From Schleiferiaceae bacterium (GTDB lineage: Bacteria > Bacteroidota > Bacteroidia > Flavobacteriales > Schleiferiaceae): DNA of 64,000 nt. The position numbers and the translations under genes were made by a program. Shown piece after piece: positions 24,593 to 51,146 of the stretch. How positions within the stretch are numbered: the first letter of the stretch is position 1; every line of letters begins with the position of its first letter. Below the pieces are notes generated by a model that saw only the letters and a program-made list of their open reading frames with translations, searched no databases and was not told the DNA's origin. The stretch spans positions 899,613 through 963,612 of the forward strand of contig CAVWUM010000002.1 of the NCBI GenBank assembly GCA_963758205.1, in the 5' to 3' direction.

Positions 24593-27316
24593 CTAATTGT
24601 CTTTGAGATATCTTACTAATTCTTCTTTACATTCCTCTCTCCTCAATTTCCAGAAGGAATAGGCAAGTGGAAAAACTGAAACTCCGGCACGACCTAAAAT
24701 TTTAAATCGTTCTACAGTAAGCGCTTCGCGATACTGCCCGGGGTATCCTATAAGGTCAATGCCCTTAAGTCCTGCCTTTGTTTTCAGCAAAATATCTATG
24801 GGCACACCAGCTATTGAAAAGTAAACCCATGTTTTGAGCTCATGCCCGGCCACAAACGCCATTACTTCAGCCAAAAATAAATCGTGAGATTGTTGAGCCT
24901 GATCAGATACGGAGGTCACCGTACGGATATCCTCCAGGTACATTCGGAGGTAATGATCTGTGGCAAGCTGTTTCGGCTCTACAGAGTGCAGCACATACTG
25001 CCGCCCCTTAGCCCGGGTGATAGAAACATTAAATATATCGGGCTTATTGATATGTACAAATGCCGAATGGTGGCTTTCCATATCCACAGCAAAAGAAAGA
25101 AACATCACATCCCGCTCTTCTCCCTGAAAGGCATAAGCCGTACCCACTGTAAGTCTATGGTTTTGCATCTGCTCAACACTCAATTGATTGCTTAACTGGG
25201 CAGAAATAAAATCAGCCTGATCCCGTAAAGGAGACAACACACCAATACTACTCTTTATCGAGTTTTCAAGCTCAGCCTCGTTTAGTATAATTTCATCTAT
25301 CCTTTTGATGATCTCCTCAGCCTCCTTTTCATTCACGCCCTTTTCATTTCTCCTGCCGTTTACCTTTATTTCAAAATGGCCCAGACCTTCAGTCTTTAAG
25401 GGCCGCTCATTCATAACCCTTAGTGAGTTGCTGTAAAACTCTTTATTTGAAAACCTTATAATTTCAGGTACAGAGCGGTAATGCTCATCAAGAAATGACA
25501 CCTGTTCCTGACTCTGCAGTTGACGACTAACCATATCCAGAAAACTTGTTTCACGAAAGTTGTAAATGGAAAGGTAGCTTTCTTTAAGACCTGACCTCAA
25601 AAGCAATTGCAGCATTTTGTTTTTTGATAAAAACGAGGAATGGCGAAGTTGGTTAGGGTCACCACATACAACCACCCTTTTAGCCCTTTGCAGGGCAGCC
25701 ATACTGGTAGCCATATCGCATTGGCTTGCCTCGTCAATTATCACTAAATCAAAAAGTTCTTTTTGTTGAGGCAGTACTCTATACAAATCAGCCAATTTGC
25801 ACAACCAAATCGGGAAGGCCCTTACTATTATTTTATGATTCAGGTTCTCAAAAATATCCTCACGGTCGCTACTACGGGTTTTCTTAAGTCCCTGGTTTAA
25901 GCCTTCAAGAGTTTGTCTATCATATCGTAATATGTCCTTTATACGCTTATGGTAGTCATTGTAAATTGCCTTTCGGCCAAACTCGATCCGCTTATCTAAA
26001 AGTTCTTCTAAATCCTTAAGCAATTGCCAATGTGGTTTGTACCACCTATGTATTGTTTTAATAATTAAAGATTTGTACTTATCCGAGAGTCTATCCCCAA
26101 GTAACCTTTCTGACCATTCCAGCTCCAGGTCCAATCTCTCTTTTAGCTTTAGTTCAAGCTCTTGAATCTGAGAATTTATGAGTTTTAAATCTGATTGGGT
26201 AATACCAAAACTTTCTACGGTAATAGGCCTGGTTAAGAAATTTCGAAGAGTTGCTTTTAGTTTCCGAAGATTACTTTTTGCCCCACCCCTTATCATTACT
26301 TCATCGGTATGAAGTAACTCCTCAATTTTACGAGCCACTACATCTACAGCTTCATCCTGCTTTGAAGTTATCAGTACAGACTCACCCCTCATCAGATGAT
26401 CCAGCGCCATACAGGCTATGGTATATGATTTACCGGTACCCGGAGGACCAACCACCAATGATAAAGTTTCGGAGCGGGCATTTAATAGAGCGCTTTTTTG
26501 CCCGTTATTTAAAATGGCGGGTAAATAAGGAGGAGTTGTATTTTTCCCCTGGTTAAATGGTGTTTCACCAAAAGTGGCCCTTAATGAACGTGAATAGTCT
26601 TGTGCTCCTGCCAGCTCTTCGAGTTCTGAGAGAATTCCATAGGTTTCTGCGGACTTAGCCACTACGCCAAGCCCTGAAGCCGGTACTAATTTAAAGGTCG
26701 AAATCTCAGCTCTTTGCTTTGGTTGCAATTGTCTTTTTATTCGGGTTTCCTTCCACAGTTCAGGATACATCAATAGCGAATCCGTATCGAGCTCTGGGAA
26801 ATATTTCTTTAGCAGCCTTCCCATATTACCTACCTCACCGTATCCAAATGGATAATTGGGCAGTTCTTTCATAATTTCACTTTCCACTAAACTGCCTTCA
26901 ACACCCTCACCTAAAAGAGTTAGAATTGAGGGGTTTAATCTCCAATTATCTTTTTCAATGTACAGAAAGTAGTGACCCTTCTCAAATTTTATGTAAGCGG
27001 GGAAAAGCAATAATGGAGCACATACCTTTCGTGTTTTACCAAGGTTTGATTCTGAGCCCAACATAAAAACAGCACCGTATAGCAGCTCTTTTTCCTTTTG
27101 ATAGAGCTGCACCATTTTTATAATCCGATCCGCATATTCCTCCGATAGTGCAACCTTAGGCGAGGCATCGTTCAGAAGCTCCTCATTCCCTTCAAACACT
27201 ATTAAATGCTCTACTTTACGGGGATTTAGGTAGTCAGATAATTTAAGTTGCCGATTATCGGCTACATAGCATTGATGTAAATAGGATAAAAGAGCAGGTA
27301 TATCAGAATTCTTCAC
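24593..27316 (-). CDS. Upf1/DNA2-like superfamily-1 helicase (AAA_11/AAA_12) with an unknown N-terminal domain of about 270 aa and a C-terminal restriction-endonuclease-like domain
   Basis: The SF1 motifs are present: Walker A VVGPPGTGKSYT, motif II VIIDEASQ, motif III VVCGDPNQL, motif IV HYRSVPEI, and motifs V/VI GTAYAFQGEERDVMF and VSITRAKG. The C-terminal roughly 120 aa resemble the REase-like tails of DNA2/NAM7-family helicases. Confidence 0.8.
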   Translation of the reverse strand: MKNSDIPALLSYLHQCYVADNRQLKLSDYLNPRKVEHLIVFEGNEELLNDASPKVALSEEYADRIIKMVQLYQKEKELLYGAVFMLGSESNLGKTRKVCAPLLLFPAYIKFEKGHYFLYIEKDNWRLNPSILTLLGEGVEGSLVESEIMKELPNYPFGYGEVGNMGRLLKKYFPELDTDSLLMYPELWKETRIKRQLQPKQRAEISTFKLVPASGLGVVAKSAETYGILSELEELAGAQDYSRSLRATFGETPFNQGKNTTPPYLPAILNNGQKSALLNARSETLSLVVGPPGTGKSYTIACMALDHLMRGESVLITSKQDEAVDVVARKIEELLHTDEVMIRGGAKSNLRKLKATLRNFLTRPITVESFGITQSDLKLINSQIQELELKLKERLDLELEWSERLLGDRLSDKYKSLIIKTIHRWYKPHWQLLKDLEELLDKRIEFGRKAIYNDYHKRIKDILRYDRQTLEGLNQGLKKTRSSDREDIFENLNHKIIVRAFPIWLCKLADLYRVLPQQKELFDLVIIDEASQCDMATSMAALQRAKRVVVCGDPNQLRHSSFLSKNKMLQLLLRSGLKESYLSIYNFRETSFLDMVSRQLQSQEQVSFLDEHYRSVPEIIRFSNKEFYSNSLRVMNERPLKTEGLGHFEIKVNGRRNEKGVNEKEAEEIIKRIDEIILNEAELENSIKSSIGVLSPLRDQADFISAQLSNQLSVEQMQNHRLTVGTAYAFQGEERDVMFLSFAVDMESHHSAFVHINKPDIFNVSITRAKGRQYVLHSVEPKQLATDHYLRMYLEDIRTVTSVSDQAQQSHDLFLAEVMAFVAGHELKTWVYFSIAGVPIDILLKTKAGLKGIDLIGYPGQYREALTVERFKILGRAGVSVFPLAYSFWKLRREECKEELVRYLKDN

Positions 27317-27365
27317 GACCCAAATATGAGCGAATTAACTTGACTTTTGATTACAAATGAAATCA

Positions 27366-28055
27366 TTAAAAGAGTAACTTCCATAGCCGCTCAAACTCCC
27401 TTTCATACGATTTGAATACACCCGGATCCTGCAGCATTATGAGGTTTTCATAATTGTGATCAGCAGCAGAGCGGGTCCAATTATAGCTGCCGGTTAGGAT
27501 AGTCTCCTCATCAAATAAGGCAAATTTGTGATGCATGTGTACGGGCGAACGATCAGTAATTACCTTCAAACCCGCTCTTTCAAGTCTTTTTATATCGGAA
27601 CCAAGATCAAAGGATTTATCATCATCTGTAATAATATTGATCGTCACCTTTCTCCGGTGAGCTGCCAAAAGTTCTTCCGTTATTTCATCATCGCTGATGG
27701 TAAATACACATATGCGAATCTTGATTTTAGCAAACCTTATTTGTGAACATATAGCTTCCCTACAAGCTGTTCCGGGGCTGAAATACACCCTAGGTTTACC
27801 GTGAGTAACTTCACCTTTATCGCCCAAAAGTTTAAAAATTTCGAAGAGCCAATCCAATAACAACTGACTTCGGTGAGAATCTGTCCTTTGCTGCGCTAAT
27901 GCCCTGGCTTCGCTTAACAGAAGCTTTCGCTGATGCTCCGTAAGGTAGATTTCAGAGAGCATCCTTCGTAACTCACCTCGCTCCTTTCTTGTAATAACAA
28001 AGTCATCAAAAGAATTTATCAATGCATTTTTAAGAGTGCTAAAATTTTCATCCAT
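27366..28055 (-). CDS. Phospholipase D-family (Nuc-like) nuclease with a single HKD motif and an N-terminal helical extension
   Basis: The HKD motif HHKFALFDEETILTGSYNWT is present, and the length is 229 aa. There is a 46-bp gap upstream of the helicase gene on the same strand. Confidence 0.8.
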   Translation of the reverse strand: MDENFSTLKNALINSFDDFVITRKERGELRRMLSEIYLTEHQRKLLLSEARALAQQRTDSHRSQLLLDWLFEIFKLLGDKGEVTHGKPRVYFSPGTACREAICSQIRFAKIKIRICVFTISDDEITEELLAAHRRKVTINIITDDDKSFDLGSDIKRLERAGLKVITDRSPVHMHHKFALFDEETILTGSYNWTRSAADHNYENLIMLQDPGVFKSYEREFERLWKLLF

Positions 28056-28060
28056 AGCTT

Positions 28061-28840
28061 TTACTTACTACTGCTTCGGGCCTTTAATAAGCTCAGTTCA
28101 TTTTCTACCTCGCGCATTTTTGTGCTTAATTTATTCTCAGAGCCAATATTTTTAGTAATTATCTTTTCAACCTGCCAAACGCCCTTAAAATCCTTTAAGC
28201 CAAACGTCTTTTGGTACGAATTAAGACTGGCACCCTTAAGCACAACCTGACTTAATGATTTGGAAACAACCCTGCGCAATAGGATTTCGCTGGAGGTTTC
28301 AAAGAGATAGACTTTATCGCTTTCGGTTTGTCCAACGTCAAACTTGTCAGGGCAAACACCTATTACTATATCACCTGCCTCAGGCCCCAAACCGTTGTAG
28401 TTCATAGTGTTGTCACTAATTTCAAACGCGCGGTATTTTTTACCTTTTATAAGCGGGATGCTGATATAGGGTAAGGATGATACGGCTATTGCATCAGTTA
28501 AGTAGGCCCCCTGATTGTTCCAGTCTACGAGTGGAACCGGTACCATATCCACCGGAGCCGACTTCGGTACCAAATTATGGATAGCCTGGTCATTCAGATC
28601 TTTGCGAAATATATCAAATCGATAAAGATCATTAACACTTAGCTCTTTCGTGAGCAGGTCATCAAGGCTAATGCTAAAATAATTAGCTATATCCATGATT
28701 GTTTCTATTTTTGGCTCTGCCCTGCCCTCTTCATAAGCACCAATTGCACCTCGCTTCAAATTGAACAAGTCAGCAAAATCGCTCTGATTAAGCTTTTTCA
28801 CTCCGCGAATCTTCCTGATGTTATTCCCTATATGTGACAT
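28061..28840 (-). CDS. XRE-family HTH transcriptional regulator fused to an S24 (LexA/CI-like) peptidase-like C-terminal domain
   Basis: The N-terminal helix-turn-helix reads IRKIRGVKKLNQSDFADLFNLKRGAIGAYEEG. The C-terminal beta-rich domain has a GDIVIGV segment like S24 peptidases, but the catalytic-Ser motif is atypical. It ends 5 bp upstream of the PLD gene on the same strand. Confidence 0.65.
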   Translation of the reverse strand: MSHIGNNIRKIRGVKKLNQSDFADLFNLKRGAIGAYEEGRAEPKIETIMDIANYFSISLDDLLTKELSVNDLYRFDIFRKDLNDQAIHNLVPKSAPVDMVPVPLVDWNNQGAYLTDAIAVSSLPYISIPLIKGKKYRAFEISDNTMNYNGLGPEAGDIVIGVCPDKFDVGQTESDKVYLFETSSEILLRRVVSKSLSQVVLKGASLNSYQKTFGLKDFKGVWQVEKIITKNIGSENKLSTKMREVENELSLLKARSSSK

Positions 28841-29045
28841 CTGATTTGAAAATTTATGCTAATTTTATTGGTAATACCATTTTTATTAGTATATTCGTCT
28901 TGTAAAGCTAACTAAATTAACATGAACCTCCCAACTTATATTTTATCCCTACCCCCACCTTGATTAAAAAATCACATATATTGGCATGGATAAACCATGC
29001 TAATCAAACTTTTAATTTGAACCCAAATAATTAACACCTATAAAA

Positions 29046-29441
29046 ATGAGCGACCATTTTAACAAAGTTCGGGAGTACCTCCTTGAATTAGACTATGACA
29101 TTAAAACAGAAAATACTTCTGACGAGGTTTTTGTAATTGAGAACGAATCTTCCGGAGTGCGCAACCTTGTAATTGCTTGCGCTGACCCTATCCTGATTTT
29201 AGAGCAGTTTATGTTTGAGCTTAAAGCCTCCTCTGAGGAAATACTCCGAAGCCTGCTCATAAAAAACCGGGATATAGTGCATGGGACTTTTGCGCTTGAT
29301 GAGACAGGTAAGAAGGTAATTTTCAGAGACACGCTTCAACTGGAAAACCTGGATTTCAACGAACTTGAAGGATCCATTAATTCTCTTAGCCTTTTGCTAA
29401 GTGAGTATTCTGATAAACTGATTGAATTTTCAAAACATTAA
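29046..29441 (+). CDS. YbjN-domain protein (putative sensory transduction regulator or chaperone-like)
   Basis: A small acidic protein of 131 aa with YbjN-like sequence. It is in the usual position upstream of pspA-like genes. Confidence 0.6.
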   Translation: MSDHFNKVREYLLELDYDIKTENTSDEVFVIENESSGVRNLVIACADPILILEQFMFELKASSEEILRSLLIKNRDIVHGTFALDETGKKVIFRDTLQLENLDFNELEGSINSLSLLLSEYSDKLIEFSKH

Positions 29442-29453
29442 AAAAATAAAACG

Positions 29454-30187
29454 ATGAACATCTTAAAAAGACTTTTTAGCATAGGGAAAGCCGAAACCCA
29501 TTCGGCCATTGACAAACTGGAAGACCCCATAAAAATGACGGAGCAAGGGTATCCGTGAACTTAAGGAAGACCTTGACAAGGCCCTACATGCCCTGGCTGA
29601 AATAAAGGCACTAAGTATCCGTGCACGTAATGATGTGGAAACATTTGGAAATAAGGCCAGCAGATTATGAAAAGAAGGCCATTATCCTTTTGCAACAAGC
29701 CGAAAAAGGAGACCTGGACACGACCGAAGCTGACAGACTGGCTCAGGAAGCTCTTACTAAAAAAGAGGAAAACCTACAGCAAGTAGCTCGCAGTAAAGCA
29801 GACCGTGAGAAGTTTGAAGGCAATATCTCTTCCATGGATACCAACATCAAAAGGCTTAGAAGCCAGATCAGCCAGTATGAAAACGAACTGAAAACGTTGA
29901 AAGCCCGCGTAAAAGTGAGCTCTGCCACCAAGAATATCAATAAGCAAATGGCTCAGATTGATTCTACCGGCACAGTGAGTATGCTGGAGCGCATGAAGGA
30001 AAAAGTAGCCCAGGAAGAAGCCCTTGCTGAGAGCTATGGGGAAATTGCCAACGAAAGCAGAAGTGTGGACGAAGAAATTGATAAAGCCATCGGTGATGCC
30101 GATAAAGTTAAAGCGGCTGATCAGCTTGCCGAGCTTAAAAAGAAGTTGGGAATGAACAAAGATGATAATGCCCAAAACCAGGGATGA
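29454..30187 (+). pseudogene. pspA: PspA/IM30-family (phage shock protein A/Vipp1-like) gene disrupted by two +1 frameshifts
   Basis: The N-terminus MNILKRLFSIGKAETHSAIDKLEDPIKMTEQG is interrupted; reading continues in the next frame as IRELKEDLDKALHALAEIKALSIRARNDVETFGNKAS, then in the third frame as DYEKKAIILLQQAEKG... through to the end (the 188-aa ORF). There are single extra bases near 29548 and 29662. Confidence 0.7.
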
Positions 30188-30828
30188 GCGAGTTTATTAA
30201 CCTGATCTTTAGTGGAGCCAATGCCTTACCCACAGCGCTGCTACTGTTCATATTCCTTTATTGGATTATTGTTATTCTGGGATTTGTAGGTACCGATTTT
30301 TTGGATATCGACATTGACATAGATGGCGACAACGATCTGGATATGGATGGTGCTTCAAGCGGAGATTTGTCATGGCTCAATAAAGCCCTGCTCTTCTTCA
30401 ACCTGGGCAAAATTCCGCTAATGATATGGCTCACCTTCGTAGCCTTTCCGCTTTGGTTTATCTGTGTAAACGTAAACGGACTGCTCGGCATCGAAAATTT
30501 CTTCTTAGGACTAATTGTATTTATTCCGGCCTTTATTGCCAGTGTATTTCTTGCCAAGTTCCTAACATGGCCCTTTGTTAAGTTTTTTATGAAAATAGAG
30601 GAAGACAGTAAGGAGAAGGAAATAATTGGCAAAATGGGAACTGTGATACTTGCCGCAGATCACCTAAGGCGCGGACAGGCTGAAGTGAATTACCGTGGTA
30701 GCTTTTTAACCTTCTACATAAAAACCCGTGAGGGAGATACCGTGGAAAAAGGGGATAAAGTGCTGTTTATCAAAAATCTTGATAGTGAAGGCTTTTACAT
30801 TATAGAGCCTTATCGCGAGATTGAATAA
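30184..30828 (+). CDS. NfeD/YqiJ-like membrane protein with a C-terminal OB-fold
   Basis: N-terminal TM helices, an acidic DIDIDIDGDNDLDMD loop, and a C-terminal soluble beta domain. Its position directly upstream of a flotillin gene parallels yqiJ-yqiK. Confidence 0.6.
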   Translation: MSEFINLIFSGANALPTALLLFIFLYWIIVILGFVGTDFLDIDIDIDGDNDLDMDGASSGDLSWLNKALLFFNLGKIPLMIWLTFVAFPLWFICVNVNGLLGIENFFLGLIVFIPAFIASVFLAKFLTWPFVKFFMKIEEDSKEKEIIGKMGTVILAADHLRRGQAEVNYRGSFLTFYIKTREGDTVEKGDKVLFIKNLDSEGFYIIEPYREIE

Positions 30829-30926
30829 GCAACTCGTTCATAGGATTTCTATAAGTTGAAAAACTAACAATAACTAACATGCCACCAGCCCCACCGGGGT
30901 CTGGCGGCCTAACTTAAAAACATAAA

Positions 30927-33074
30927 ATGGATTCAATATTTCAAAACACCACTATGGTCATCATAATAGCTGTAGTGGTACTCGTACTGGGGCTATTAGC
31001 GATGATTTCGCGCTGGTACCACAAGGCCACCCAGGGCCAGGCATTGGTAAAAACCGGGGTTGGTGGCATTAAAGTTTCCTTTAATGGAATTGTGGTCATC
31101 CCCGTGCTGCACCGGCTGGAGGTAATGGACATTTCCCTTAACACCATCACCATCGACCGTAGAGGAAAGGATGGTTTGGTATGTAAGGACAACTTACGTG
31201 CGGACATCAATGTAGCCTTTTACGTAAGGGTAAACCAAATGGTGGATGACGTAAAAAAGGTAGCCCAATCGGTGGGTTGTAATCGTGCTTCTTCAAAAGA
31301 GGCGTTGCGCCTGCTGTTTGACGCTAAATTTTCTGAAGCCCTAAAAACCGTTGGTAAGAAGTTCGACTTTGTGGATCTCTACAACCAGCGTGATGAATTC
31401 CGTAAGGAAATAATTGACATTATCGGAACTGACCTGAACGGTTACATTCTGGATGATGCGGCCATTGACTTTCTGGAGCAAACCCCTCTTGACTCTTTAG
31501 ATCCGAATAATATTCTTGATGCCGAGGGTATTAAGAAGATTACTGAAATCACTGCCAAAGAATTGGTGAAGGCCAACTTCATACAGCGTGATAAGGAAAA
31601 AACCATTAAGCAACAGGACGTAGAAGCCCGTGAAGCAATTCTGGTTTTAGAACGTCAACTGGCGGAAAGTGAAGAGAAGCAGAAGCGTGAAATCGCCAAT
31701 GTGAAGGCTCGTGAAGAAGCTGAAACCGAAAAGGTAAATCAGGAGGAAAGATTAAAAGGAGAGCGTGCCCGAATTGCTACAGAAGAGGAAGTTCAGGTTG
31801 CTGAAGAAAATAAACTCCGCCAGATAATTGTTGCTGCCAAAAGCAAGGAGCGTACTGAGGCCGTGGAGACCGAGCGCGTGACAAAAGATCGTGACCTGGA
31901 AGCAACAGAGCGCGAAAAGATTGTAACACTGGCACAGATTGAAAAAGAAAAGTCTGTAGAAGTAGAGAAGAAAAACATCCAGGAAGTTATCCGCGAGCGT
32001 GTGGCTATTGAGAAAACGGTGGTGGATGAAGAAGAGAAGATTAAGGACACCCGTGCTTACGCAGAAGCCGACCGTAATAAAAAGGTAGCGGTAACCAAGG
32101 CTGAGGAAGATGCAGAATCTGCATTGGTACAGGAAATCAAGAAGGCGGAGGCTGGAAAACAAGCTGCGGAGTTTATTGCCAAGCAGCGCATTATTGATGC
32201 CGAGGCTGAGAAGCAAGCCTCTACTCAAAAGGCAGAAGCCATAAAAGTACTGGCCGAAGCTGAGGCTGCCAGGTTTGCAGCATCTGGTTTAGCAGAGGCC
32301 AAAGTAATGGAAGCCAAAGCGGAAGCTCGTGAGAAGCAGGGAGAAGCGGAAGCCTCTGTACTGGAAGATCAGGCCATGGCTGAAGCTAAGGGCATTGAAG
32401 CCAAATCTCAGGCACAAGCCGAGGCTGACCTTAAATTAGGTAACGCTGCCGCAGAAGTAGAGCGTGCCAAAGGACTGGCTGAAGCCGATGTTACCTTTAA
32501 GAAAGCTGAAGCTGACAAAGAGAAATTTGCAACAGAAGCTGATGGTATAGAGCGTAAGGCTGAGGCCATGAAAAAACTGGATGGTGTAGGAAAAGAGCAT
32601 GAAGAGTTTAAGCTCCGTCTCAACAAAGACCTTCAGGTTGATCTGGCTCAAATCAATATACAAAAAGCCATTGCTGACGCCCAGGCGGAAGTACTTAGCA
32701 ATGCATTGAAATCTGCGAAGATTGATATTGTAGGTGGTGAAAATGTGTTCTTTGATAAGATAGTAAGCTCTATTACCCAGGGTAAGGCCTTTGACCGTGC
32801 CGTAAATAATAGCGACACTTTTACACAGGTAAAAAACCAGCTGTTGGATAACTCTAACGGAAAGAATTTGCTGGATAAGGTGAAAGACCTCATCAAGGAT
32901 TCTGATGTGGATAGTGAGGATATTAAAAACCTCTCTATTACCGCGCTCATCGTTAAGATGATGAGCCAGACCCAGAACAAGGAGAAGAAGAACATGCTAC
33001 AGCAATTGTTGGATATAGCGCGTGGCTCCGGATTTGGCGATCGTTCGGCAGAGGATTTGGGATTGATTGAGTAA
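30927..33074 (+). CDS. Flotillin-family SPFH/band-7 protein with a long Glu/Ala/Lys-rich coiled coil (YqiK-like)
   Basis: An N-terminal TM plus SPFH domain, followed by about 400 aa of EA-rich heptad repeats and a C-terminal flotillin-like region. Confidence 0.8.
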   Translation: MDSIFQNTTMVIIIAVVVLVLGLLAMISRWYHKATQGQALVKTGVGGIKVSFNGIVVIPVLHRLEVMDISLNTITIDRRGKDGLVCKDNLRADINVAFYVRVNQMVDDVKKVAQSVGCNRASSKEALRLLFDAKFSEALKTVGKKFDFVDLYNQRDEFRKEIIDIIGTDLNGYILDDAAIDFLEQTPLDSLDPNNILDAEGIKKITEITAKELVKANFIQRDKEKTIKQQDVEAREAILVLERQLAESEEKQKREIANVKAREEAETEKVNQEERLKGERARIATEEEVQVAEENKLRQIIVAAKSKERTEAVETERVTKDRDLEATEREKIVTLAQIEKEKSVEVEKKNIQEVIRERVAIEKTVVDEEEKIKDTRAYAEADRNKKVAVTKAEEDAESALVQEIKKAEAGKQAAEFIAKQRIIDAEAEKQASTQKAEAIKVLAEAEAARFAASGLAEAKVMEAKAEAREKQGEAEASVLEDQAMAEAKGIEAKSQAQAEADLKLGNAAAEVERAKGLAEADVTFKKAEADKEKFATEADGIERKAEAMKKLDGVGKEHEEFKLRLNKDLQVDLAQINIQKAIADAQAEVLSNALKSAKIDIVGGENVFFDKIVSSITQGKAFDRAVNNSDTFTQVKNQLLDNSNGKNLLDKVKDLIKDSDVDSEDIKNLSITALIVKMMSQTQNKEKKNMLQQLLDIARGSGFGDRSAEDLGLIE

Positions 33075-33134
33075 CGATGGTACGCACCCGCCCGGATGAA
33101 CACCGTTCGGACGGGGATAACGCAGATTAGGCGG

Positions 33135-33680
33135 ATGAAAACGGATAAGCAGGAAATCAGGATAAGTAAGTTTTTAAGTCTGGTGCTAAGACACAAGCCC
33201 GAAACCATTGAATTGCGTTTGGATGCAAGTGGCTGGACCCATACTAACGAGTTGCTGGAAAAGCTGAACTCAAACGACTTTGAAATTTCCATTGAAGATC
33301 TGAAGCAGGTGGTCGCTAACAACGACAAAAAGAGGTTCCAGTTTTCAGAGGACTATTCCAAAATCAGGGCCAGCCAGGGCCACTCGCTAAAAGTAGATTT
33401 AGCCCTGGAGGAAAAAACTCCGCCTGACCTACTTTATCATGGAACGGCAGAGAAGAATCTTACTTCCATAAAAAAGCAAGGTCTGCTTAAGGGTCAAAGG
33501 CATCACGTTCATCTTTCATCTGATGCTGTAACCGCTCGCAGAGTGGGAATGAGGTATGGCAAACCTGTGGTATTAAAGGTGGATTCCAAACGGATGATGG
33601 AAGAAGGCGTTACGTTTTATCAATCCGCGAATGGTGTGTGGCTCGCAGAGCACGTGCAACCAGAATACCTAAATGAGTAA
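33135..33680 (+). CDS. kptA: RNA 2'-phosphotransferase KptA/Tpt1 (NAD+-dependent)
   Basis: The protein aligns end to end with E. coli KptA (SKFLSLVLRHKPE..., LYHGT, HVHLS). The start is the internal Met at 33135. Confidence 0.85.
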   Translation: MKTDKQEIRISKFLSLVLRHKPETIELRLDASGWTHTNELLEKLNSNDFEISIEDLKQVVANNDKKRFQFSEDYSKIRASQGHSLKVDLALEEKTPPDLLYHGTAEKNLTSIKKQGLLKGQRHHVHLSSDAVTARRVGMRYGKPVVLKVDSKRMMEEGVTFYQSANGVWLAEHVQPEYLNE

Positions 33681-33784
33681 ATATAAATAGATTGATCCAA
33701 GGCTCGGAGCAGGCGGTTTGTCGCCTAAGCGGTCTGCTCTGGATTTGGGTTTCAAACAATGAAATGCTATAATTAAATTCTTAC

Positions 33785-34940
33785 ATGCACATAGTAGAAC
33801 CGGCAAAAGTGTTTATATCATATTGCCATACAGACGAAGAATTAAAAAAGAAGTTTCTATCCCACTTAGCTTCCTTAAGACAGTTAGGGGTTATTAAAGA
33901 CTGGCACGATCGAAAGATTAGTGCAGGTGAAGAATGGGACGGAAATATTAAACAAGAACTCAGAAGATGCCGATATCATTATACTTCTTATCAGTTCTGA
34001 TTTTCTTAATTCTGAATATTGTAGAGAGGTTGAAATAAAAGAAGCTATGGAAAAGCACGAGCAAAAAAGTGCTATGGTTGTTCCTGTAATTCTAAGACCT
34101 TGCGATTGGAAAGATTTCCCTTTTGGCAAGTTACAAGGATTGCCCCAGAATGTTACTCCCATAACAAAATGGAAAAATGAGGATGAGGCATTTTTAGATG
34201 TAGTTGAAGGAATTAAAAAGCTACTTACGCCACTAACAGTTAAAACTGAAGACACCTCATCCAAATTTATTCACTTCCAGCAAGATACAGTATTGGTAAA
34301 ACTACCACGTGGATATGTAGTAATTCATGATATTGAATTTAATGAAGATTCGGGTTGGGCCGTAACAGCCCATCACTACCATTACGATTACGATTTATAT
34401 GGAGGGACTCATTTTCATGAAAGCTATCAAAGAACATGGGAAACTCTCGATGGAAAATATTATCAGTGTTTAAAACTAGGAATACCAAAAGGGGATTGGA
34501 ATTACGCCTTAGATTTTTTAAGTCTTATGGTGGAAATCAGGACACGAGATAAAGCCACCAACCTTGAAGACTTAATCGAACTTGAATCCACTGATGATCA
34601 TCTAACATATCATAAAAAAGGCACAAAGATTCTGACACCCACTACGCCTCAATCGTTTAAAAAAGACAACAAGACTGGAGATTTAAGAGATATTATTGCA
34701 GAACTTGAATTGAGCCCTTGGAAGAACTACGAACTTGAAACTCTGCATAAGGAATTTGAATCTTTAAGAAGAACTGCTCACTTGACTTCATACGATTTGT
34801 TGCAACCCGACCATCCGGCCCTCCAGTATGTCAAAGAAATAGCTGAAGATTATAAAAGAAGTTTTGACTTGGATAATCTAAAGAAATGGACAGAACGATT
34901 GAGTGATGCATTGTATGACGTGATTAAATATGTCAGATAA
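33785..34940 (+). pseudogene. TIR-domain protein with an unknown C-terminal domain of about 230 aa; the reading frame is broken by a +1 frameshift inside the TIR domain
   Basis: ORF A (33785..34000) encodes the TIR strand-A and helix-A region, KVFISYCHTDEE...DWHDRKISAGEEWDGNIKQEL. ORF B (33921..34940) continues the TIR domain in the +1 frame, EDADIIILLISSDFLNSEYCREVEIKEAMEKH...VPVILRPCDW. One extra base is present near 33962. Confidence 0.75.
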
Positions 34941-37900
34941 TACCTCTGAAGCGCAGCTAATGACCCAAATGAAAGAAAACAACCAAAACATAACCCTCGA
35001 ATCCGGCACTTACGAAATCATCCGTGACCGGCTGCTGAAACATGGGGGAGATCTGCGAAAGCGCATCAGTAGGCTAAATGAATCCCGTAAGGAGGTGTTT
35101 GGTTCTATTGAAACTCAACTGGTTTCCACCGAAAGGATTTCTACAGAAAACAACTGCATTGCTCGTGACATTGTGCCTTTGGGTCAGAACCGTTTTTTGT
35201 TTGGCTACAACGTACACATGGGGCTTAAAACCGAAACGCTGTTTTCTGATGTATTCAGCCTGTACACCTACAATCCAGAAGACCACACATTTCTGAAGGA
35301 AGAGCAAATCCCGTTTTTTGACAACGAAACTTTTCAGGTTGATTTTGCCAACCTTTACAAATATTACCGCGACACCCGCTTTGCGAAGTTTGCCGAAATA
35401 GGCCAGTTTATTTTTATGGTTTTCCAGGTGGGGAAAACGCCCAACGACATCAAAACCTTTAAGTGGGCCAAAACCGATGGCGGCCTGCAATACCTCAACA
35501 GCCGCAGCGATCATGAGTTTGTGTTCCCTGACCAGCACGAGTTCATATGGAAAAGAGCCACACGCGATATGCAGCGCAAGGGGCAACATCCGCACATCAG
35601 CGTTGAAGACAAAGTGTTTGTGGAAACCGTGGGTGGCGACCTCACCATAAAGGTGGAAGACAACACCGCAAGCGGCCGCGGCATTTATGCCGAAGAGGTG
35701 GACGACCCCGATCAGACACTGGATGATGCCGAGATTTTTTATGCCGTAATCGGTAACCTGGTGGTGCTTAAAATACTTCCCTATCAAGAAACGAAATACC
35801 GTTACATTGTTTTTAACCAGAAAATTCAGGAGGCCATTCGTGTAGATGCACTGGAGGATTCCTGTGTTTTGTTGCCTGACAGTCAGGGAATAATTTTCGC
35901 CAAAGGTTACTACATACAAACCGGGGAGTTTAAGTTGTTTGACAATCAACTGGAGGACATGCTCTTTGAAAAGCGAATCCCCTCCCCTAATGGTGAAGAT
36001 TTTCTGTATGTTTTTTACCAGAAGAAAACCGGCATTTATGCCCTCCTCCCCTACAATATCATCAACCAGGAGGTGGCCACGCCTATAATCTGTAGCGGTT
36101 ATTCCATTTTTGATGATGGTGAACTGATTTACTTCCGTGCAGAAGATGAGCAAAAGCGTCATCACAGTATCCAGATTTGGCAAACGCCTTTTTACTCGCC
36201 CAACAAAACCATTGAGGTAACCAACAGCTCCTACCTTTTTAAAATTGGAAATAAGGAAGTGGTGCGGGCTATGGCCGAGGCCAGTGAGTTGGTGAAGCTG
36301 ATTAATAAAGAGGACAACTACGCCAACCTTTATGTGGATTTGGTAAAGATGGCTACCGACCTGATGGATGCCTATCATTGGTTGAATCACCAGGAGGCCC
36401 AGCAATTGAAGGAACCTTTACAGGAGATAAAAAAATCGGCCTCTACGGCCATTGAGGAGTATGAAAAGGTAATCCGGATAAAGAAAAATACCCGCGAAAA
36501 AAGTGGCGAAATTACCGGACGGGCGGATGATATTATTTCTCGCGCCAAGCGCGGAACAGCCGCAACTATTGATGAATTTGTAGAGAGACTATCTCAACTG
36601 CGCACTTCAAAAGGAGAAATAATTTCGCTAAAGAAACTGCGCTACATCGATAACGATATTGTAGCTAAATATGAGAAGGAACTTTCGGAAATAACCGATT
36701 TGGTTTCTGAACGAACGGTGCATTTCCTGCTAAAGAAGGAAGCCCTGCAGCCATACCGGGATAAGGTAGAAAAGCTGAACAAGCAGCTGGAGAAGGTCAA
36801 GAAAGTGGTGGATGCCAATGAACTGGAAAAGGAAATTATAAAAGTTTCTGGTGAACTGGAGTTGCTGATTGACATTGTGAGCAACCTGAAAATTGAAGAT
36901 GCCACACAAACTACGCGTATTATTGATGGTATTTCGGGCATCTACTCTCAATTTAACCGCATAAACGCTGCGCTTAAAAAGAGGCGCAAGGAACTAATTG
37001 GCCAGGAAGGCGAAGCTGAGTTTAACTCTCAGCTAAAGTTAGTTAACCAGGGGTTGACCAACTATCTGGACATTTGCGATACGCCTGAAAAGTGCGAGGA
37101 GTACCTCAACAAACTGATGGTGCAACTGGAGGAACTGGAAGGCAAGTTTGCGGAGTTTGACAAGTTCTTGGTGAAAATCACCGAGAAGCGCGAGGAGGTT
37201 TATAATGCTTTTGAATCTAAAAAGGTGTACCTCACTGAGGCCAAAAACAAAAAGAGTCTGGCGCTGCAACAATCGGCAGAGCGTATAGTAAGTGGTATTC
37301 AAAAGCGCCTTTCGGGGATGGATTCCGTGCAGGAAATCAATTCTTACTACGCCTCTGACCTAATGGTGGACAAAGTGCGCGACCTCAGCAAGCAACTGCT
37401 GGAAATGGGCGATTCAGTGAAGGCCGATGACATCCAAAGCAAACTGAAAACGGCTTACGAAGAAGCCACCCGCCAACTGAAAGACAAGAAAGAACTGTTT
37501 GTGGATGGCGAGGATGTAATCCGCCTGGGCAAACACAGCTTTAACGTAAACACTCAGAACATTGACCTCTCGCTGGTCACCAGGGATGGGCAGATGTACT
37601 TTCACATTACCGGCACTAACTTTTTTGAGAAGGTGCTATCGGAGGAATTTTTGGCTACCAAAGAAGTTTGGGCGCAATCACTCGTAAGCGAGAATGAAAA
37701 AGTGTATAGAGCCGAATATCTGGCGTACAAGCTTTTCAGCAACAGCCTGAATTACCGCAAAAACGGTGATAAGGATTTGAAGTCGGCAGACGAGTTGCAC
37801 CAAATGAGCGACCAGGCTTTGCAAGGATATGTGCAGAGGAGGATGGCACTACGCTACGAAGAAGGCTACATTAAAGGTGTGCATGATAAGGATGGGATGC

Positions 37901-39918
37901 TGATTCTTAAAAACCTCAACAACTTATATCATAGCATTGGACTTTTGCGCTACCCTGCCCACAGCCGTGTGCTGGCCTACCTATACTGGCAATACCTTAT
38001 TGATGCTGAAGCCAAAAAAGAATGGCCAGAGCATTTCAGAAGCATAAGGAGTATTCTTAAGGTTTTTCCCAATAGCCGAAGTTTTGAAACCACCATTCGT
38101 GAACTAAAGGAAGAGCTGGAAAAAGCTTTGGCCGTAAACGGTGTGCAGCATGAATCCAACACAGCCGAGGCTGCGGAGTATCTTTTCCATTTCCTTACGG
38201 AAGAAAATGAGTTCATTTTTTCAATGGAAGCGTGGGAGCTCTCGGAGCATTTTCAGACTTTCCTGAAAAAGAACCGCTCCATGAAGGAGTTTGAGACCAG
38301 CTTAAAAGCCACAAACGGTCAGTATCTGGAAAAACTTGACATTATCAAAAACTGGCTAAAAAGCTATGTTCTTCACTCGGAAGCTGAAAGCGGTGAAGAA
38401 CTACAAGAGACGGAAGAGGCAGCTTTGATTCTGATGGATCGATCGGCACAAAACCCCACAGAACATCGTGTGGTACTGCATGCCGAAATTTCGGGTTTGC
38501 AAGGAGATCATTCTGTAGTAAAGGATGGAAAGTACCACCTGCATTACAATCATTTCATGGAAAAGCTTCAGCAGTTTGATCGCCAGCAGGTAATAGCTTA
38601 CCAGCGGTTTACTGAAATGAAAAAGCAACTGCTGGAGGGTGCCAGGCAGGAAATGAGGCTGAATGAATTCAAACCCCGGGTAATGAGTTCCTTTGTTCGC
38701 AACCAGCTTTTGGATGAAGTTTATTTACCTCTTATCGGGGATAACCTGGCCAAACAAATTGGCGCTGCCGGAGATAGCAAACGTACCGACCTTATGGGAA
38801 TGCTGTTGCTAATCTCCCCTCCCGGTTACGGTAAAACCACCTTAATGGAATACATCGCCAACCGCTTAGGATTGGTGTTTATGAAAATTAACGGACCAGC
38901 TATTGGACACGATGTCACCAACCTGGATCCGCAATCGGCAAGTAATTCCGCTGCACGCGAAGAGTTGCAAAAGCTAAACCTTGCTTTTGAATTGGGTGAT
39001 AACGTGATGATTTACGTGGACGACATTCAGCATTGTAATCCGGAGTTCTTACAAAAGTTTATTTCGCTGTGTGATGCTCAGCGTAAAGTCGAAGGGGTTT
39101 ACAAAGGTGTAAGTAAAACCTACGATTTGCGCGGTAAAAAAGTGGCTGTAGTAATGGCCGGAAACCCTTATACCGAAAGTGGAGAAAAATTTCAGGTGCC
39201 TGATATGCTGGCCAACCGCGCTGACATTTACAATCTGGGAGACATTATTGGCGGCAAAGCACGTGCCTTTGAATTGAGCTATTTGGAAAACAGCATTACT
39301 TCCAACTCTACCATGGCGCGCCTAAGTGGCAAGAGCCAGAAGGATATCATCACTTTAATAAAAGTAGCCGAAACCGGAAACCAGGAAGGGATTGAATTTG
39401 AAGCCAACCACAGCCCAGAGGAAATCAATGAGTACGTGAATCTCCTGAAAAAAATGATTCGCGTTCGTGACATTATCCTTAAGGTGAATGAGCAATACAT
39501 CCGCTCGGCAGGTATGTCGCCTGAGTTTAGAACGGAGCCATCCTTCCGTTTGCAAGGCTCCTACCGCGATATGAATAAAATTGTAGAGAAATTAAGCCCT
39601 GTGTTGAATGATAAGGAACTGGACACCATCATCCTGTCTCATTACGAAAATGAATCGCAGACCCTTACCAGTGGTGCAGAGTTTAACTTCCTAAAGTTTA
39701 AGGAAATGTTTGGAGCCATCAGCAAAGAAGAAGGGGAACGGAAGGCAGAAATCATTGACACCTTTAAGCGAAACCAAAAGCTCAAAGGCCTTGGAGGTAA
39801 TCAAATGGGCCATGTATTGGAGCAAATGGAATTAATTAGCCGGGGGTTGCAGGATATCGTTAAGGTTTTTCAAATGCCTGCACCTAAGGAAAAGGCGGAA
39901 GGGAAGGCAAAGGAGTAA
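34930..39918 (+). CDS. Giant 1,662-aa protein: an unknown N-terminal region of about 1,250 aa with coiled coils plus a C-terminal MoxR/AAA_5-type ATPase domain
   Basis: Walker A LLISPPGYGKTTL, Walker B VMIYVDDIQ, and sensor/Arg-finger region VVMAGNP...DMLANRAD as in MoxR/RavA AAA_5. Its start overlaps the TIR-gene stop by 11 nt. Confidence 0.7.
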   Translation: MSDNTSEAQLMTQMKENNQNITLESGTYEIIRDRLLKHGGDLRKRISRLNESRKEVFGSIETQLVSTERISTENNCIARDIVPLGQNRFLFGYNVHMGLKTETLFSDVFSLYTYNPEDHTFLKEEQIPFFDNETFQVDFANLYKYYRDTRFAKFAEIGQFIFMVFQVGKTPNDIKTFKWAKTDGGLQYLNSRSDHEFVFPDQHEFIWKRATRDMQRKGQHPHISVEDKVFVETVGGDLTIKVEDNTASGRGIYAEEVDDPDQTLDDAEIFYAVIGNLVVLKILPYQETKYRYIVFNQKIQEAIRVDALEDSCVLLPDSQGIIFAKGYYIQTGEFKLFDNQLEDMLFEKRIPSPNGEDFLYVFYQKKTGIYALLPYNIINQEVATPIICSGYSIFDDGELIYFRAEDEQKRHHSIQIWQTPFYSPNKTIEVTNSSYLFKIGNKEVVRAMAEASELVKLINKEDNYANLYVDLVKMATDLMDAYHWLNHQEAQQLKEPLQEIKKSASTAIEEYEKVIRIKKNTREKSGEITGRADDIISRAKRGTAATIDEFVERLSQLRTSKGEIISLKKLRYIDNDIVAKYEKELSEITDLVSERTVHFLLKKEALQPYRDKVEKLNKQLEKVKKVVDANELEKEIIKVSGELELLIDIVSNLKIEDATQTTRIIDGISGIYSQFNRINAALKKRRKELIGQEGEAEFNSQLKLVNQGLTNYLDICDTPEKCEEYLNKLMVQLEELEGKFAEFDKFLVKITEKREEVYNAFESKKVYLTEAKNKKSLALQQSAERIVSGIQKRLSGMDSVQEINSYYASDLMVDKVRDLSKQLLEMGDSVKADDIQSKLKTAYEEATRQLKDKKELFVDGEDVIRLGKHSFNVNTQNIDLSLVTRDGQMYFHITGTNFFEKVLSEEFLATKEVWAQSLVSENEKVYRAEYLAYKLFSNSLNYRKNGDKDLKSADELHQMSDQALQGYVQRRMALRYEEGYIKGVHDKDGMLILKNLNNLYHSIGLLRYPAHSRVLAYLYWQYLIDAEAKKEWPEHFRSIRSILKVFPNSRSFETTIRELKEELEKALAVNGVQHESNTAEAAEYLFHFLTEENEFIFSMEAWELSEHFQTFLKKNRSMKEFETSLKATNGQYLEKLDIIKNWLKSYVLHSEAESGEELQETEEAALILMDRSAQNPTEHRVVLHAEISGLQGDHSVVKDGKYHLHYNHFMEKLQQFDRQQVIAYQRFTEMKKQLLEGARQEMRLNEFKPRVMSSFVRNQLLDEVYLPLIGDNLAKQIGAAGDSKRTDLMGMLLLISPPGYGKTTLMEYIANRLGLVFMKINGPAIGHDVTNLDPQSASNSAAREELQKLNLAFELGDNVMIYVDDIQHCNPEFLQKFISLCDAQRKVEGVYKGVSKTYDLRGKKVAVVMAGNPYTESGEKFQVPDMLANRADIYNLGDIIGGKARAFELSYLENSITSNSTMARLSGKSQKDIITLIKVAETGNQEGIEFEANHSPEEINEYVNLLKKMIRVRDIILKVNEQYIRSAGMSPEFRTEPSFRLQGSYRDMNKIVEKLSPVLNDKELDTIILSHYENESQTLTSGAEFNFLKFKEMFGAISKEEGERKAEIIDTFKRNQKLKGLGGNQMGHVLEQMELISRGLQDIVKVFQMPAPKEKAEGKAKE

Positions 39919-43013: not shown

Positions 43014-43628
43014 TTACTTCGCCACATTAAACGTAATGATTATAGGCTTCTCAGTAATGGTGCGGGTTACTGAGGCACCTGAAACTGATTTAACCTGAGG
43101 GGAATAACTGTCCACCACAAAGTCAATAACCTTTACATCCGCTGCACCTTTGGGTAACTTAACTTCAAAATTCGGAGCTTTAAGATTGTTGGCCGTAGCT
43201 TTAAATACCACCAGCGCATAGTACTTTTCCTTTTCGTTGTAGGTGAGGTACGATTTTATCTTTTCCTCCTCATTAAGCCATTGCCTTTTTACGGCCACGT
43301 TATCACCCAAAATTTTCTTCATATTATGAAAAGCGTAAGCCGATGTTTTGGCCGGGTAGCCTCCGTTTCCAAATCGCGGATTGCCATAGAGGCCCATCCC
43401 GGTAAAGGTGGTATAATCATTTTTTGCCTCTGTCATCCACTTTTTATTATGATCGGGCATCAGTTTTCCGGTAGCCTCATCCAAAGTAAAAATGTCATAA
43501 TAGCCGCCTTTGTCGGCCATCCAGTATTGCGCAAGTTTATCAAGCCCGGAGAACCATATTTCAAGGCTCCCTCTAATCAGCCAATTGGCTTGTTGGTAAA
43601 ACATCCCGGCCTCATCGGGCATATCCAA
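43014..43628 (-). CDS. 204-aa ORF without a signal peptide or ATG start; likely the frameshifted C-terminal part of the preceding 998-aa secreted protein
   Basis: It overlaps the upstream ORF by 17 nt in another frame. Its called start is TTG. Removing one A from the A6 run at the junction fuses the two frames (…DREISRLKNQKPLDMPDEAGMFYQQ…). Confidence 0.45.
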   Translation of the reverse strand: MDMPDEAGMFYQQANWLIRGSLEIWFSGLDKLAQYWMADKGGYYDIFTLDEATGKLMPDHNKKWMTEAKNDYTTFTGMGLYGNPRFGNGGYPAKTSAYAFHNMKKILGDNVAVKRQWLNEEEKIKSYLTYNEKEKYYALVVFKATANNLKAPNFEVKLPKGAADVKVIDFVVDSYSPQVKSVSGASVTRTITEKPIIITFNVAK

Positions 43629-46608
43629 AGGCTTCTGATTTTTTAAGCCTGCTAATCTCCCTGTCCAGCTTGGCTATGGCTCCCTTATCGGGCACGGCTG
43701 TAGCCTTCAACTTCTCCTTCTGCTGCTCAAGCTCTTTTACCATCCTGTCTCTTTCAGCAACCGCATTGCTACTTTCCACACCAAAATCCTGCTTCAAAGG
43801 AGAAAACTTTCCGCCAGTGTGAGTGCCATAGCCCCATTCCGTAATCGTGGTTTTTACCTGTGGGTAAAATGATTTTAACCAGGAAGTTTCCTCGCGTATT
43901 GTTTCATATATATCATCATCCGTTGCTGTAAGCCCTTTTTCATCCTTATCATACGGAAAGCGCAAATACTGAGCACTGCGCTGCCCACCACTGGTGCCTG
44001 AGTAATGATGCCAGTTTGCCCAAAAATTGGGTGGCAAAATATAAAGCGGCATGCCGTTACCGGGATGTTTGGTTACCCCTTTGTCATTAAGCTCTTTTTT
44101 ACGTTTGGTGCGGATGGCCACAAGGGCATCAAGTGCGAGCTTAATATCGTAACAACCATCCTTTGTAGTACCCTGGTAAAGAAAATCGAGCAAGGGTGCG
44201 GCACACATATAACCAGTAATATTATTGTTTAATGGACCGGAGATTTGCCCCATATTTCCATCCATAATAGCACTCATGTAAGCTGCGGCCCATTGCGGCC
44301 ACATGTGCGCCAAAGGCCCATGCCAGGTTTGGTCGGTTTCATTTTCCCACTCCAGCATGTCCATGGTCCCTTGCCCTGTTTTTTCAACCTGACCTGGCTG
44401 CACCCACAGGGTTTTCATATCTACTTTATTGGGGCCATGCACTGCTGTGAGGTTATAAAAAAAAGCTGCATCATAGGCGTAGGTTCGTGGGTCAGAGAGT
44501 ACACTATCCCTCTTATCGGGATCCGCCAGGGCCTTGTGCTTATCCCACGGTATACGCATACCACGGTTGTAAATCTGTGTATTGGGATTTTCAGGATCAG
44601 TAACATCAAAATAGCTTGCAAGCCATGGTGAAACTTTTCCATCCTTCGTCCAATATTCAAGTACTTCCTTTGACTTTTCATAACCCTCGGGGTTAACCCG
44701 GTACTCTGTAACCTTTGCCTTTATATCTTCAGTCCGCTGGCTTTGCGCTCCTATCCCCCCTTCTCCCGTAAGGAGGTATGATGTGGTGGAGTAGGGTAAA
44801 AAATCTTCCGGATAGTCAATTTTGCCATTGCCATTCTGGTCCTTATCGTAATACCAGCCACCCTCCTGTTTGGCTTTTTGGTTAACATACCAGTTGGCGC
44901 CTTGCTGTATGCAGTATAAAATCTTAACATCAGGGTTAAGCGCTTTCACCTTTTTATTTCTGTAAATAATGTCATTCTTAAGCCAGCGTACGGCATTGCC
45001 ATCCTCACCCTCATGCTTTATGTAATCATAATGAGTGTTGTACTGTCCGTTGGTATTTTGATTGATAAAAAACTTACCCCCTATTTCATTGCTAAAGTCG
45101 CCATAACTCATATAGCAGCGCAGGTAATTAAACTTAGCACGCAACGTATCAGGGTCAGAGTTAAAGCAATTAGTACCAAAAAAATCATTAAAGGTGTTTT
45201 TGGTTTCCACTGCCGTGGGAAGATCTTCGGGCTTCATAAAACTGGTAATGTAACCGCCCCTGTATTTACCCGAGGCCACTATTTTTATCAGGGCTGAGTT
45301 TGTTTTACAATCGTTATACATATTGGGGTCGCTACTAACAATCTTAAGCCGCAAATAGCAGTAATAGTTTGGGTCATTAGTTAGATATCCTTTCCATCGG
45401 TTGGAGCGGTCAAACTCCAGGCTGTCAATAATCTTAGTCCAGCTGAAGTTATCTGTACTGCCGTATAAGGCGTACCAAAAATTGCAGGTAGCACCAGGGT
45501 TTATAGGGCGATTGTCCATCTGGTAAAATACTACCGTATCGAGCCTTGTTTCGCGATTCATGTAATAATAGGTACTCAAATCCTTCCACGGCTGCTTTAC
45601 GTCCTGAAACCGCTGCTTGAAATAGTACTCAGGTTTACCTGTACTAATTCCACTTAGCTTTCCATCTTTCCAGCTCACGTCATCCAGTTTCCAGGCTGAT
45701 TCAGGGTCGTGCACATTAGCAGTTGCCAGCGATTTATTATCCAGATCTTTCCAGTCCACCTCATAGCCCCCATACATTTCAATGGCATGATTTCTTGGAT
45801 CGTGATCCGGCCTTACCAGCCTGCTTTTACTTATCCTAGCCTCCTCATTCACCAGGGCATCGCAAAAATTACTAACCGGTTTTTTTGCTACCTGCTTCTT
45901 AGCTTCCTTACGGGATTCCACAGGCGCTGAGTTGCTCAATACGATACTCTCACTTTCAAATACCTCTGGTGCATGATAGTTATCCCGGGCATCCTCCACC
46001 ACCAAAGCTGCAATACTACTAACACTGCCATCTACCTTATTCACCTTTACCAGGATATTACCTTTAGAGTTGCTCTTAATGCTCACCTTAAAAGTGCGGC
46101 TGCGATTACCGGTTACACCGCTATAGCGAACGGCCGTGCCGTTTATCTCAATGGCAATTTCATTGCCCTCATAACCCCGCTGAGTGCTTAAAAATGTGAG
46201 CGTATAGAGGTAGTCTGGCTTTAAACCTGCAAGGCGAAATGCCCAGGCCTCTTTACTCCCCCAGCCTCTCCAAAGCACTTTATCTTCAAAAGCAGCTTCA
46301 ACCGGCTTGCCGTCATACTCTGTGCGATAAAAGGGAAAAGTAGTGGCAGCCTCCATAAAAATATCAACGGTGGTAGAATTGCCATTTTCATCCTTTAAAT
46401 TTTCAGCCAGCAAGCCCGTTGTTTTAGAGTCTGCGGTGATGTTATTCCAGGGTTTACCTGCCCCTTCCGCAAATCTTACCGGGTTGATATATATGGCGGG
46501 CTCTTTGGTTTGTGGAAGTTCATCACCGTAAGGATAAGCATATAGACCTACAATTAAAGAACTTACAAGTGAAAGAAGCAGGGAAATTTTGGGCAGCGAT
46601 AAGCTCAT
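43612..46608 (-). CDS. Large secreted hypothetical protein (998 aa as called); it probably continues into the downstream 204-aa ORF
   Basis: It has a signal peptide and the composition of a beta-rich extracellular protein (discoidin-like or carbohydrate-active?). It ends in a short coiled coil right at a T6/A6 homopolymer. Confidence 0.6.
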   Translation of the reverse strand: MSLSLPKISLLLSLVSSLIVGLYAYPYGDELPQTKEPAIYINPVRFAEGAGKPWNNITADSKTTGLLAENLKDENGNSTTVDIFMEAATTFPFYRTEYDGKPVEAAFEDKVLWRGWGSKEAWAFRLAGLKPDYLYTLTFLSTQRGYEGNEIAIEINGTAVRYSGVTGNRSRTFKVSIKSNSKGNILVKVNKVDGSVSSIAALVVEDARDNYHAPEVFESESIVLSNSAPVESRKEAKKQVAKKPVSNFCDALVNEEARISKSRLVRPDHDPRNHAIEMYGGYEVDWKDLDNKSLATANVHDPESAWKLDDVSWKDGKLSGISTGKPEYYFKQRFQDVKQPWKDLSTYYYMNRETRLDTVVFYQMDNRPINPGATCNFWYALYGSTDNFSWTKIIDSLEFDRSNRWKGYLTNDPNYYCYLRLKIVSSDPNMYNDCKTNSALIKIVASGKYRGGYITSFMKPEDLPTAVETKNTFNDFFGTNCFNSDPDTLRAKFNYLRCYMSYGDFSNEIGGKFFINQNTNGQYNTHYDYIKHEGEDGNAVRWLKNDIIYRNKKVKALNPDVKILYCIQQGANWYVNQKAKQEGGWYYDKDQNGNGKIDYPEDFLPYSTTSYLLTGEGGIGAQSQRTEDIKAKVTEYRVNPEGYEKSKEVLEYWTKDGKVSPWLASYFDVTDPENPNTQIYNRGMRIPWDKHKALADPDKRDSVLSDPRTYAYDAAFFYNLTAVHGPNKVDMKTLWVQPGQVEKTGQGTMDMLEWENETDQTWHGPLAHMWPQWAAAYMSAIMDGNMGQISGPLNNNITGYMCAAPLLDFLYQGTTKDGCYDIKLALDALVAIRTKRKKELNDKGVTKHPGNGMPLYILPPNFWANWHHYSGTSGGQRSAQYLRFPYDKDEKGLTATDDDIYETIREETSWLKSFYPQVKTTITEWGYGTHTGGKFSPLKQDFGVESSNAVAERDRMVKELEQQKEKLKATAVPDKGAIAKLDREISRLKKSEAFGYAR

Positions 46609-50279: not shown

Positions 50280-50356
50280 GGTTATTCAATTTACAGCAAG
50301 CAAAAATCCCCTGGGCACTATGTGCCCAGGGGATTTTTGCTTTATAATTCCTAATA

Positions 50357-51058: not shown

Positions 51059-51146
51059 AAAGCGATGTTTTTAATTAGGGAGGGAAAATAGGGAAATGAT
51101 CAATGCCTCTATCACGCATTTCTTTAGCTACTAAATTCGCGCTTGT

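Follow-up and report, generated by a model that had tools for sequence, protein, structure and literature searches.

Does the organism behind the window (the whole 64-kb stretch of DNA analysed here) carry a broken TIR-domain gene, or does the break exist only in the deposited sequence? The gene in question, called TIR-X below, is split within the window into a 71-amino-acid ORF1 and a remainder in the +1 frame (Table 1). The initial annotation had set inactivation of the gene beside an assembly indel without choosing between them. An intact contig from sequencing run ERR12040027 now favors the second explanation and leaves inactivation as the rival: the deposited contig most likely contains a consensus error that splits the gene, and the organism probably carries an intact 384-amino-acid gene.

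The split itself is present in the deposited sequence, well beyond chance. ORF1 begins MHIVEPAKVFISYCHTDEE and stays in frame up to GNIKQEL, after which it runs out of frame to its C-terminus, ...GNIKQELRRCRYHYTSYQF. ORF2 is open in the +1 frame from 33888, has a GTG at 33921 and continues ...DADIIILLISSDFLNSEYCREVEIKEAMEKHE... to the stop at 34940. Both ORFs match Pfam TIR_2, ORF1 at profile positions 1-53 (E 1.2e-5, 26.2 bits) and ORF2 at positions 44-104 (E 1.1e-6, 29.6 bits), and deleting one base yields a 384-amino-acid protein with a full match to the profile (PF13676, positions 1-104, 61.7 bits, E 1.3e-16; gathering score 28). These matches confirm the earlier claim of a frameshift within the TIR domain, and the original-frame stop proposed 13 codons on was found at 33998-34000, 13 codons past Leu59. 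A single extra base had been placed around 33962; one extra base it is, but comparison with the intact allele assigns it to one A of 33964/33965, where the sequence reads CTC AGA [A] GAT GCC and gives ...KQELRDADII... Strand A and helix A had been assigned to the first half, which holds, but in the predicted structure ORF1 would also include strand B and the BB loop, and the second half would start with strand C.

Table 1. Positions in the window of the split TIR-domain gene, its neighbors and the other one-base insertions.
Feature	Position	Strand	Remarks
PspA gene	29454..30187	+	operon member; two one-base insertions relative to three relatives
PspA site A	29547-29549	+	GG to GGG; absent in three relatives at ~80% nucleotide identity
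PspA site B	~29662	+	one extra base relative to the same three relatives as site A
KptA/Tpt1, RNA 2'-phosphotransferase	33096..33680	+	upstream neighbor; PF01885 E 4.8e-53; NF002014 257 bits (cut-off 239)
Conserved intergenic hairpin	33695..33750	+	just upstream of the cargo position; -30.7 kcal/mol, z -3.5
Low-GC cassette carrying TIR-X	33756..34959	+	bounded by alignment breakpoints; close relatives have 127 bp there
TIR-X gene as in the window	33785..34940	+	1,156 nt against 1,155 nt in the intact allele (384 aa plus stop)
ORF1, 71 aa	33785..34000	+	predicted TIR strand A, helix A, strand B and BB loop; then 12 out-of-frame codons and stop
Extra-base site	33964..33965	+	AA in the window against a single A in the intact allele (CTCAG-AGATGCC); 1436/1437 identity, one gap
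TIR-X remainder, +1 frame	33966..34940	+	predicted strand C, helix C with Glu83, strands D and E; conserved C-terminal domain of ~225 aa
DUF3686/AAA+ ATPase gene	34960..39918	+	downstream neighbor; 1,652 aa from ATG 34960, as in relatives
Gene of ~1,197 aa, no Pfam match	43014-46608	-	TT to TTT at 43627-43629
Big_9/cadherin adhesin lesion	~63117-63131	-	one extra base (GTATTCAGAAGGGCC)

The comparison with orthologues that the initial annotation had proposed found the two-ORF arrangement in none of them. A search of 5.8 billion proteins returned 15 full-length orthologues (P0002-P0016; 385-395 amino acids, 42-53% identity, 98-99% coverage), every one a single ORF in which the junction aligns without a gap as IKQEL-x-D[A/S]DII; a search of a genome-contig collection found only two full-length relatives, at 37% and 48% identity. 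The window gene retains all 62 family-invariant positions, including Glu83, and has ~325 open codons 3' of the shift with no further stops, so that neither extra stops nor lost invariant residues mark it as a degenerating pseudogene. The orthologues also bear on the idea that the two halves are made as separate polypeptides, a 71-amino-acid N-terminal one and a C-terminal one starting at GTG 33921 or Met88, which would reassemble or leave the C-terminal domain alone. Both ORFs are open, and the gene calls of the source contig include the two of them (P0121 and P0001), but no orthologue is split, the same strain has an intact allele (described below) and the predicted break lies inside the central sheet. 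Because it falls between helix B and strand C, neither fragment is predicted to be able to fold alone, and production of separate polypeptides is extremely improbable.

Programmed +1 ribosomal frameshifting or transcriptional slippage would offer another route to a full-length TIR protein by rejoining the ORFs. In its favor, a +1 shift between Leu59 and Asp61, where tandem AGA AGA codons lie, would be enough to regain the conserved protein. However, AGA, at 17% of Arg codons, is too common to be a rare 'hungry' codon; the site, CUC AGA AGA, has no stop or rare codon, the next in-frame stop lying 13 codons further on; after a +1 shift, re-pairing is impossible for both the CUC and the AGA tRNA; and no A or T run is present on which transcription could slip. 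Neither hallmark of a prfB-type +1 site was found, that is, a conserved two-ORF arrangement or a shift-prone codon combined with a stop or rare codon. The single ORFs of all 15 orthologues and of the same-strain intact allele likewise stand against recoding, for which we see scarcely any chance; the initial annotation had also thought it unlikely, a view that the orthologues, the frequency of AGA and the lack of a stop at the site support.

The intact allele was found in Logan, which consists of assemblies of public sequencing runs. Aligned with window 33713-35149, contig ERR12040027_2236203 (L085, 1,436 bp) agrees at 1436 of 1437 positions, and the sole difference is one A fewer at 33964/33965 (CTCAGAGAT against CTCAGAAGAT), giving AGAGAT for AGAAGAT (...CTCAGAGATGCC... 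in the intact form and ...CTCAGAAGATGCC... in the window). This contig encodes the intact 384-amino-acid protein P0125. One A fewer in sequence data is what the initial annotation had named as evidence against a real lesion. Two further contigs of the same run, L086 and L092, match window 32675-33741 and 48126-51173, respectively, at 100% (4.1 kb together), and the three contigs combine to 5.5 kb with no substitution and one indel, the TIR A. Judged by this identity, the ERR12040027 contigs are from the same strain as the window. A literature search for the run returned no papers.

The intact allele was hidden in the first homology search because the representative of its cluster is an unrelated protein: at 90% identity, the 71-amino-acid P0121 and the 384-amino-acid P0125 are grouped under the 51-amino-acid P0122, and it was the cluster listing that revealed P0125. 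The 1,848,660-bp NCBI/ENA source contig is the only place where the split products, P0121 and P0001 (297 amino acids), are recorded; they were never found in the read-derived Logan assemblies. Thus, the lesion does not recur in the independent sequence of the lineage, the ERR12040027 contig being intact.

A consensus error is indicated because the sole difference over 5.5 kb is an indel, while real strain divergence would give mostly substitutions. The same conclusion is favored because the split products are confined to the source contig, the only independent sequence of the strain is intact and the TIR gene is free of decay. We infer that the extra A arose as an artefact and is not a real minority variant, although the intact contig could come from a co-existing subpopulation, ERR12040027 and the reads behind the assembly being two possibly separate read sets.

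At least four further one-base insertions split conserved genes in the window, and all of them shift the frame by +1 (Table 1). Two lie in the PspA gene upstream of TIR-X, for which the gene call on the source contig is a truncated product of 185 amino acids (P0140); exact look-ups of two reconstructed intact PspA variants returned no match. On the opposite strand, ORFs 43612..46608 (998 amino acids) and 43014..43628 (204 amino acids) form one gene in an 84%-identical orthologue (P0158/L091), which aligns without a gap across the junction. In the adhesin, deleting one base restores a repeat unit and its gapless alignment with sister units; the large Big_9/cadherin/CHU_C adhesin, for type IX secretion, occupies 60310-64000 (-). 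Such lesions were not found in the CesT-like, YqiJ-like, flotillin-like or DUF3686 genes, and the other same-strand junctions flagged by a codon-score screen (1440, 16160, 18892, 19286, 21675, 28061, 30187, 55227 and 59399) proved to be normal start/stop overlaps.

Sequence context was considered as a common cause of the insertions and was rejected. The intact TIR site is CAGAG, from which two of the other sites could stem, but 97 CAGAG sites are left in the window, a number that speaks against depletion of a methylation motif. The 7-mer TCAGAAG, shared by the TIR and adhesin sites, occurs 15 times in the window. A third TCAGAAG near the 43628 junction is irrelevant, the orthologue also having CAGAAG there and the actual indel being TT to TTT.

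Because five of the five frameshifts are one-base insertions, a directional bias not expected of real mutation, a technical origin is favored. They occur about once per 13 kb, a rate in keeping with a contig that is very long (1.85 Mb), unannotated and ENA-submitted, which suggests a source assembly of long-read type. Known frameshift artefacts of long-read (Nanopore or PacBio) genomes and MAGs are alike in that single-base indels break genes that are otherwise conserved, occur several times within tens of kilobases, for the most part extend short runs of a base and are missing from independent read-derived sequence. They differ in that the change here is from a single A to AA rather than in a long homopolymer, and the platform of the source is a presumed one. 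A further point against an artefact is the clustering of three of the five insertions in one operon, for which there could be a biological reason. The mechanism proposed is that a consensus error of an assembly presumably of long-read type would have added one spurious A at 33964/33965 to the deposited contig and would thus split, on paper, a TIR-domain gene that in the organism would be intact and encode 384 amino acids.

TIR NADases being toxic, inactivation of a newly acquired copy is plausible. A genuine and very recent one-base insertion could in this way have inactivated the TIR gene and left a pseudogene or a loss-of-function allele that varies in the population; toxicity of the newly acquired NADase cassette may have favored it. 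For such an event speak the extra base in the deposited sequence, outside any long homopolymer, the foreign, low-GC nature of the cassette and the disruption of PspA in the same operon, together with lesions in other window genes, a nonsense codon and a deletion of 4 nt, that look more like true mutations. On the other hand, the only independent sequence of the strain is intact and without a substitution in 5.5 kb, the split products are never seen in read-derived assemblies, the uniform +1 insertions point to technical bias and the TIR gene has no secondary degeneration. Real pseudogenes of toxic defense effectors resemble TIR-X in having an early frameshift in the effector domain of a horizontally acquired gene. 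They differ from it in that TIR-X is without secondary lesions, the same strain has an intact allele and the same type of lesion affects unrelated housekeeping-type genes nearby. A genuine insertion is therefore unlikely, though it keeps an appreciable share of the probability; if real, the frameshift is an ordinary recent pseudogene.

The two lesions of another kind lie in paralogous lipoprotein genes. In the gene at 51216-52352 (+), an in-frame TAA at 51708-51710 is followed by 213 open codons, and in its paralogue at 54056-55227 (+) a 4-nt deletion at ~54172 has reduced ATCA from two copies to one just past the signal peptide. A Por_Secre_tail protein gene follows each paralogue, and the 5' 177 nt of the two are 97% identical, which suggests recent gene conversion. 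Neither the TAA nor the 4-nt deletion is as typical of a consensus error, a hint that this genome may contain some genuine pseudogenes. The initial annotation had also raised decay of the system. This keeps some probability because PspA, in the same operon, has two one-base insertions relative to its relatives, but the PspA insertions are in line with the artefacts proposed for the rest of the window.

TIR-X is carried by a cassette with a GC content of 36.3% and a GC3 of 29%, against ~45% and 46-53% in the neighboring genes. The cassette interrupts an operon (window 29040-39918; L087, L088 and L089 in relatives) that encodes a CesT_Tir_1-like protein, PspA, a YqiJ/NfeD-like membrane protein, a flotillin-like coiled-coil protein of 715 amino acids and a DUF3686/DUF7902/AAA+ ATPase of ~1,650 amino acids, and that is syntenic and common to the relatives at ~80% nucleotide identity. 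A look-up of the CesT-like protein returned no match, and a full-text literature search for DUF3686 returned no papers. In L088 and L089, 127 bp separate KptA from the DUF3686 gene, and L087 is without KptA and has a 379-amino-acid gene at the cargo position, which was considered as a relative of TIR-X and found to be unrelated. TIR-X is present in the window and absent from L087, L088 and L089; hence, it does not co-occur with the operon in related genomes.

The initial annotation had called the TIR gene the effector of the system. This does not hold, given that relatives with the operon lack TIR-X, its base composition is foreign and its orthologues stand alone in unrelated contexts. As judged from sequence, TIR-X is horizontally acquired cargo rather than a core effector of the PspA/flotillin/DUF3686 operon. 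Downstream of it, the DUF3686 gene probably starts at ATG 34960 and not at 34930, in which case the apparent 11-nt overlap with the TIR stop would not be real coupling. The hairpin that precedes the cargo position (51-56 nt) is 96% identical to that of L087, compared with ~80% for the flanking genes, and its pairs are kept via G-U changes in relatives; it has no match in Rfam. It is also where Logan contigs L086 and L085 end and overlap. Just upstream of the operon, the minus strand at 24593-28840 encodes an XRE-type HTH protein and a PLDc_2 nuclease-like protein, which are conserved as a pair in the relatives, as well as a 906-amino-acid AAA_11/AAA_12 superfamily-1 helicase; these genes may form a separate defense-like module.

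With the one base removed, the predicted structure of TIR-X conforms to the flavodoxin-like TIR fold. Glu83, in helix C, is invariant across 16 family members and, in an alignment with PDB 7xoz, falls on the Glu of the plant TIR 'CLD-EL' motif, which we take to be the catalytic residue and which would make Glu83 the putative catalytic residue of TIR-X. TIR-X was compared with bacterial TIR NADases and signal producers (Pfam TIR_2, ThsB of Thoeris, AbTir, SPARTA TIR-APAZ) and with plant TIR. The PADLOC ThsB1 profile PDLC00420 matches it at E 4.1e-54, over only profile positions 3-152 of 319, and with NCBIfam ThcB4 it reaches 25.6 bits (cut-off 220). Neither a ThsA-type effector (a SIR2, Macro or TM domain with SLOG) adjoining TIR-X, in the window or at five orthologue loci (L002, L081-L084), nor a conserved partner gene next to the orthologues at these five loci was found. 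Because no ThsA-like or other partner gene lies nearby, we do not assign TIR-X to Thoeris.

TIR-X further differs from known TIR systems in that Argonaute, STING, SAVED and NLR are also absent from its surroundings, here and at the five orthologue loci, and in that its C-terminal domain of ~225 amino acids has no match in Pfam or NCBIfam and no fold match in PDB; the activity of TIR-X is putative. This domain (34260-34940, +; P0002-P0016) forms a small family in Bacteroidota-type metagenomes, with many invariant residues that include PRGY, W191, THxHxSY, KTGxxRD and HPA. We infer that TIR-X is most likely a stand-alone, horizontally acquired enzyme that would cleave or cyclise NAD+ in a defense of the abortive-infection type.

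The consensus-error reading has a practical consequence, in that the 'inactivated effector' should not be read as biology. Furthermore, indel errors in the source contig probably number about one per 10-13 kb, and the other split genes of this contig need like caution. A bolder alternative takes the extra A and both PspA lesions as real, with a lineage that is silencing a fresh TIR NADase cassette and an operon that constitutes an undescribed membrane-associated defense or stress module with swappable NAD+-using effectors. This is improbable, well below a genuine insertion in TIR-X considered by itself. If the lesions were real, the cassette would sit in an exchangeable cargo position after the conserved hairpin, at which relatives carry KptA, an unknown 379-amino-acid protein or nothing. 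Two modest leads emerge for the biology of these bacteria: a variable cargo position in the conserved PspA/flotillin/DUF3686 operon, and an intact, horizontally acquired TIR family whose C-terminal domain is strongly conserved yet matches no described domain.
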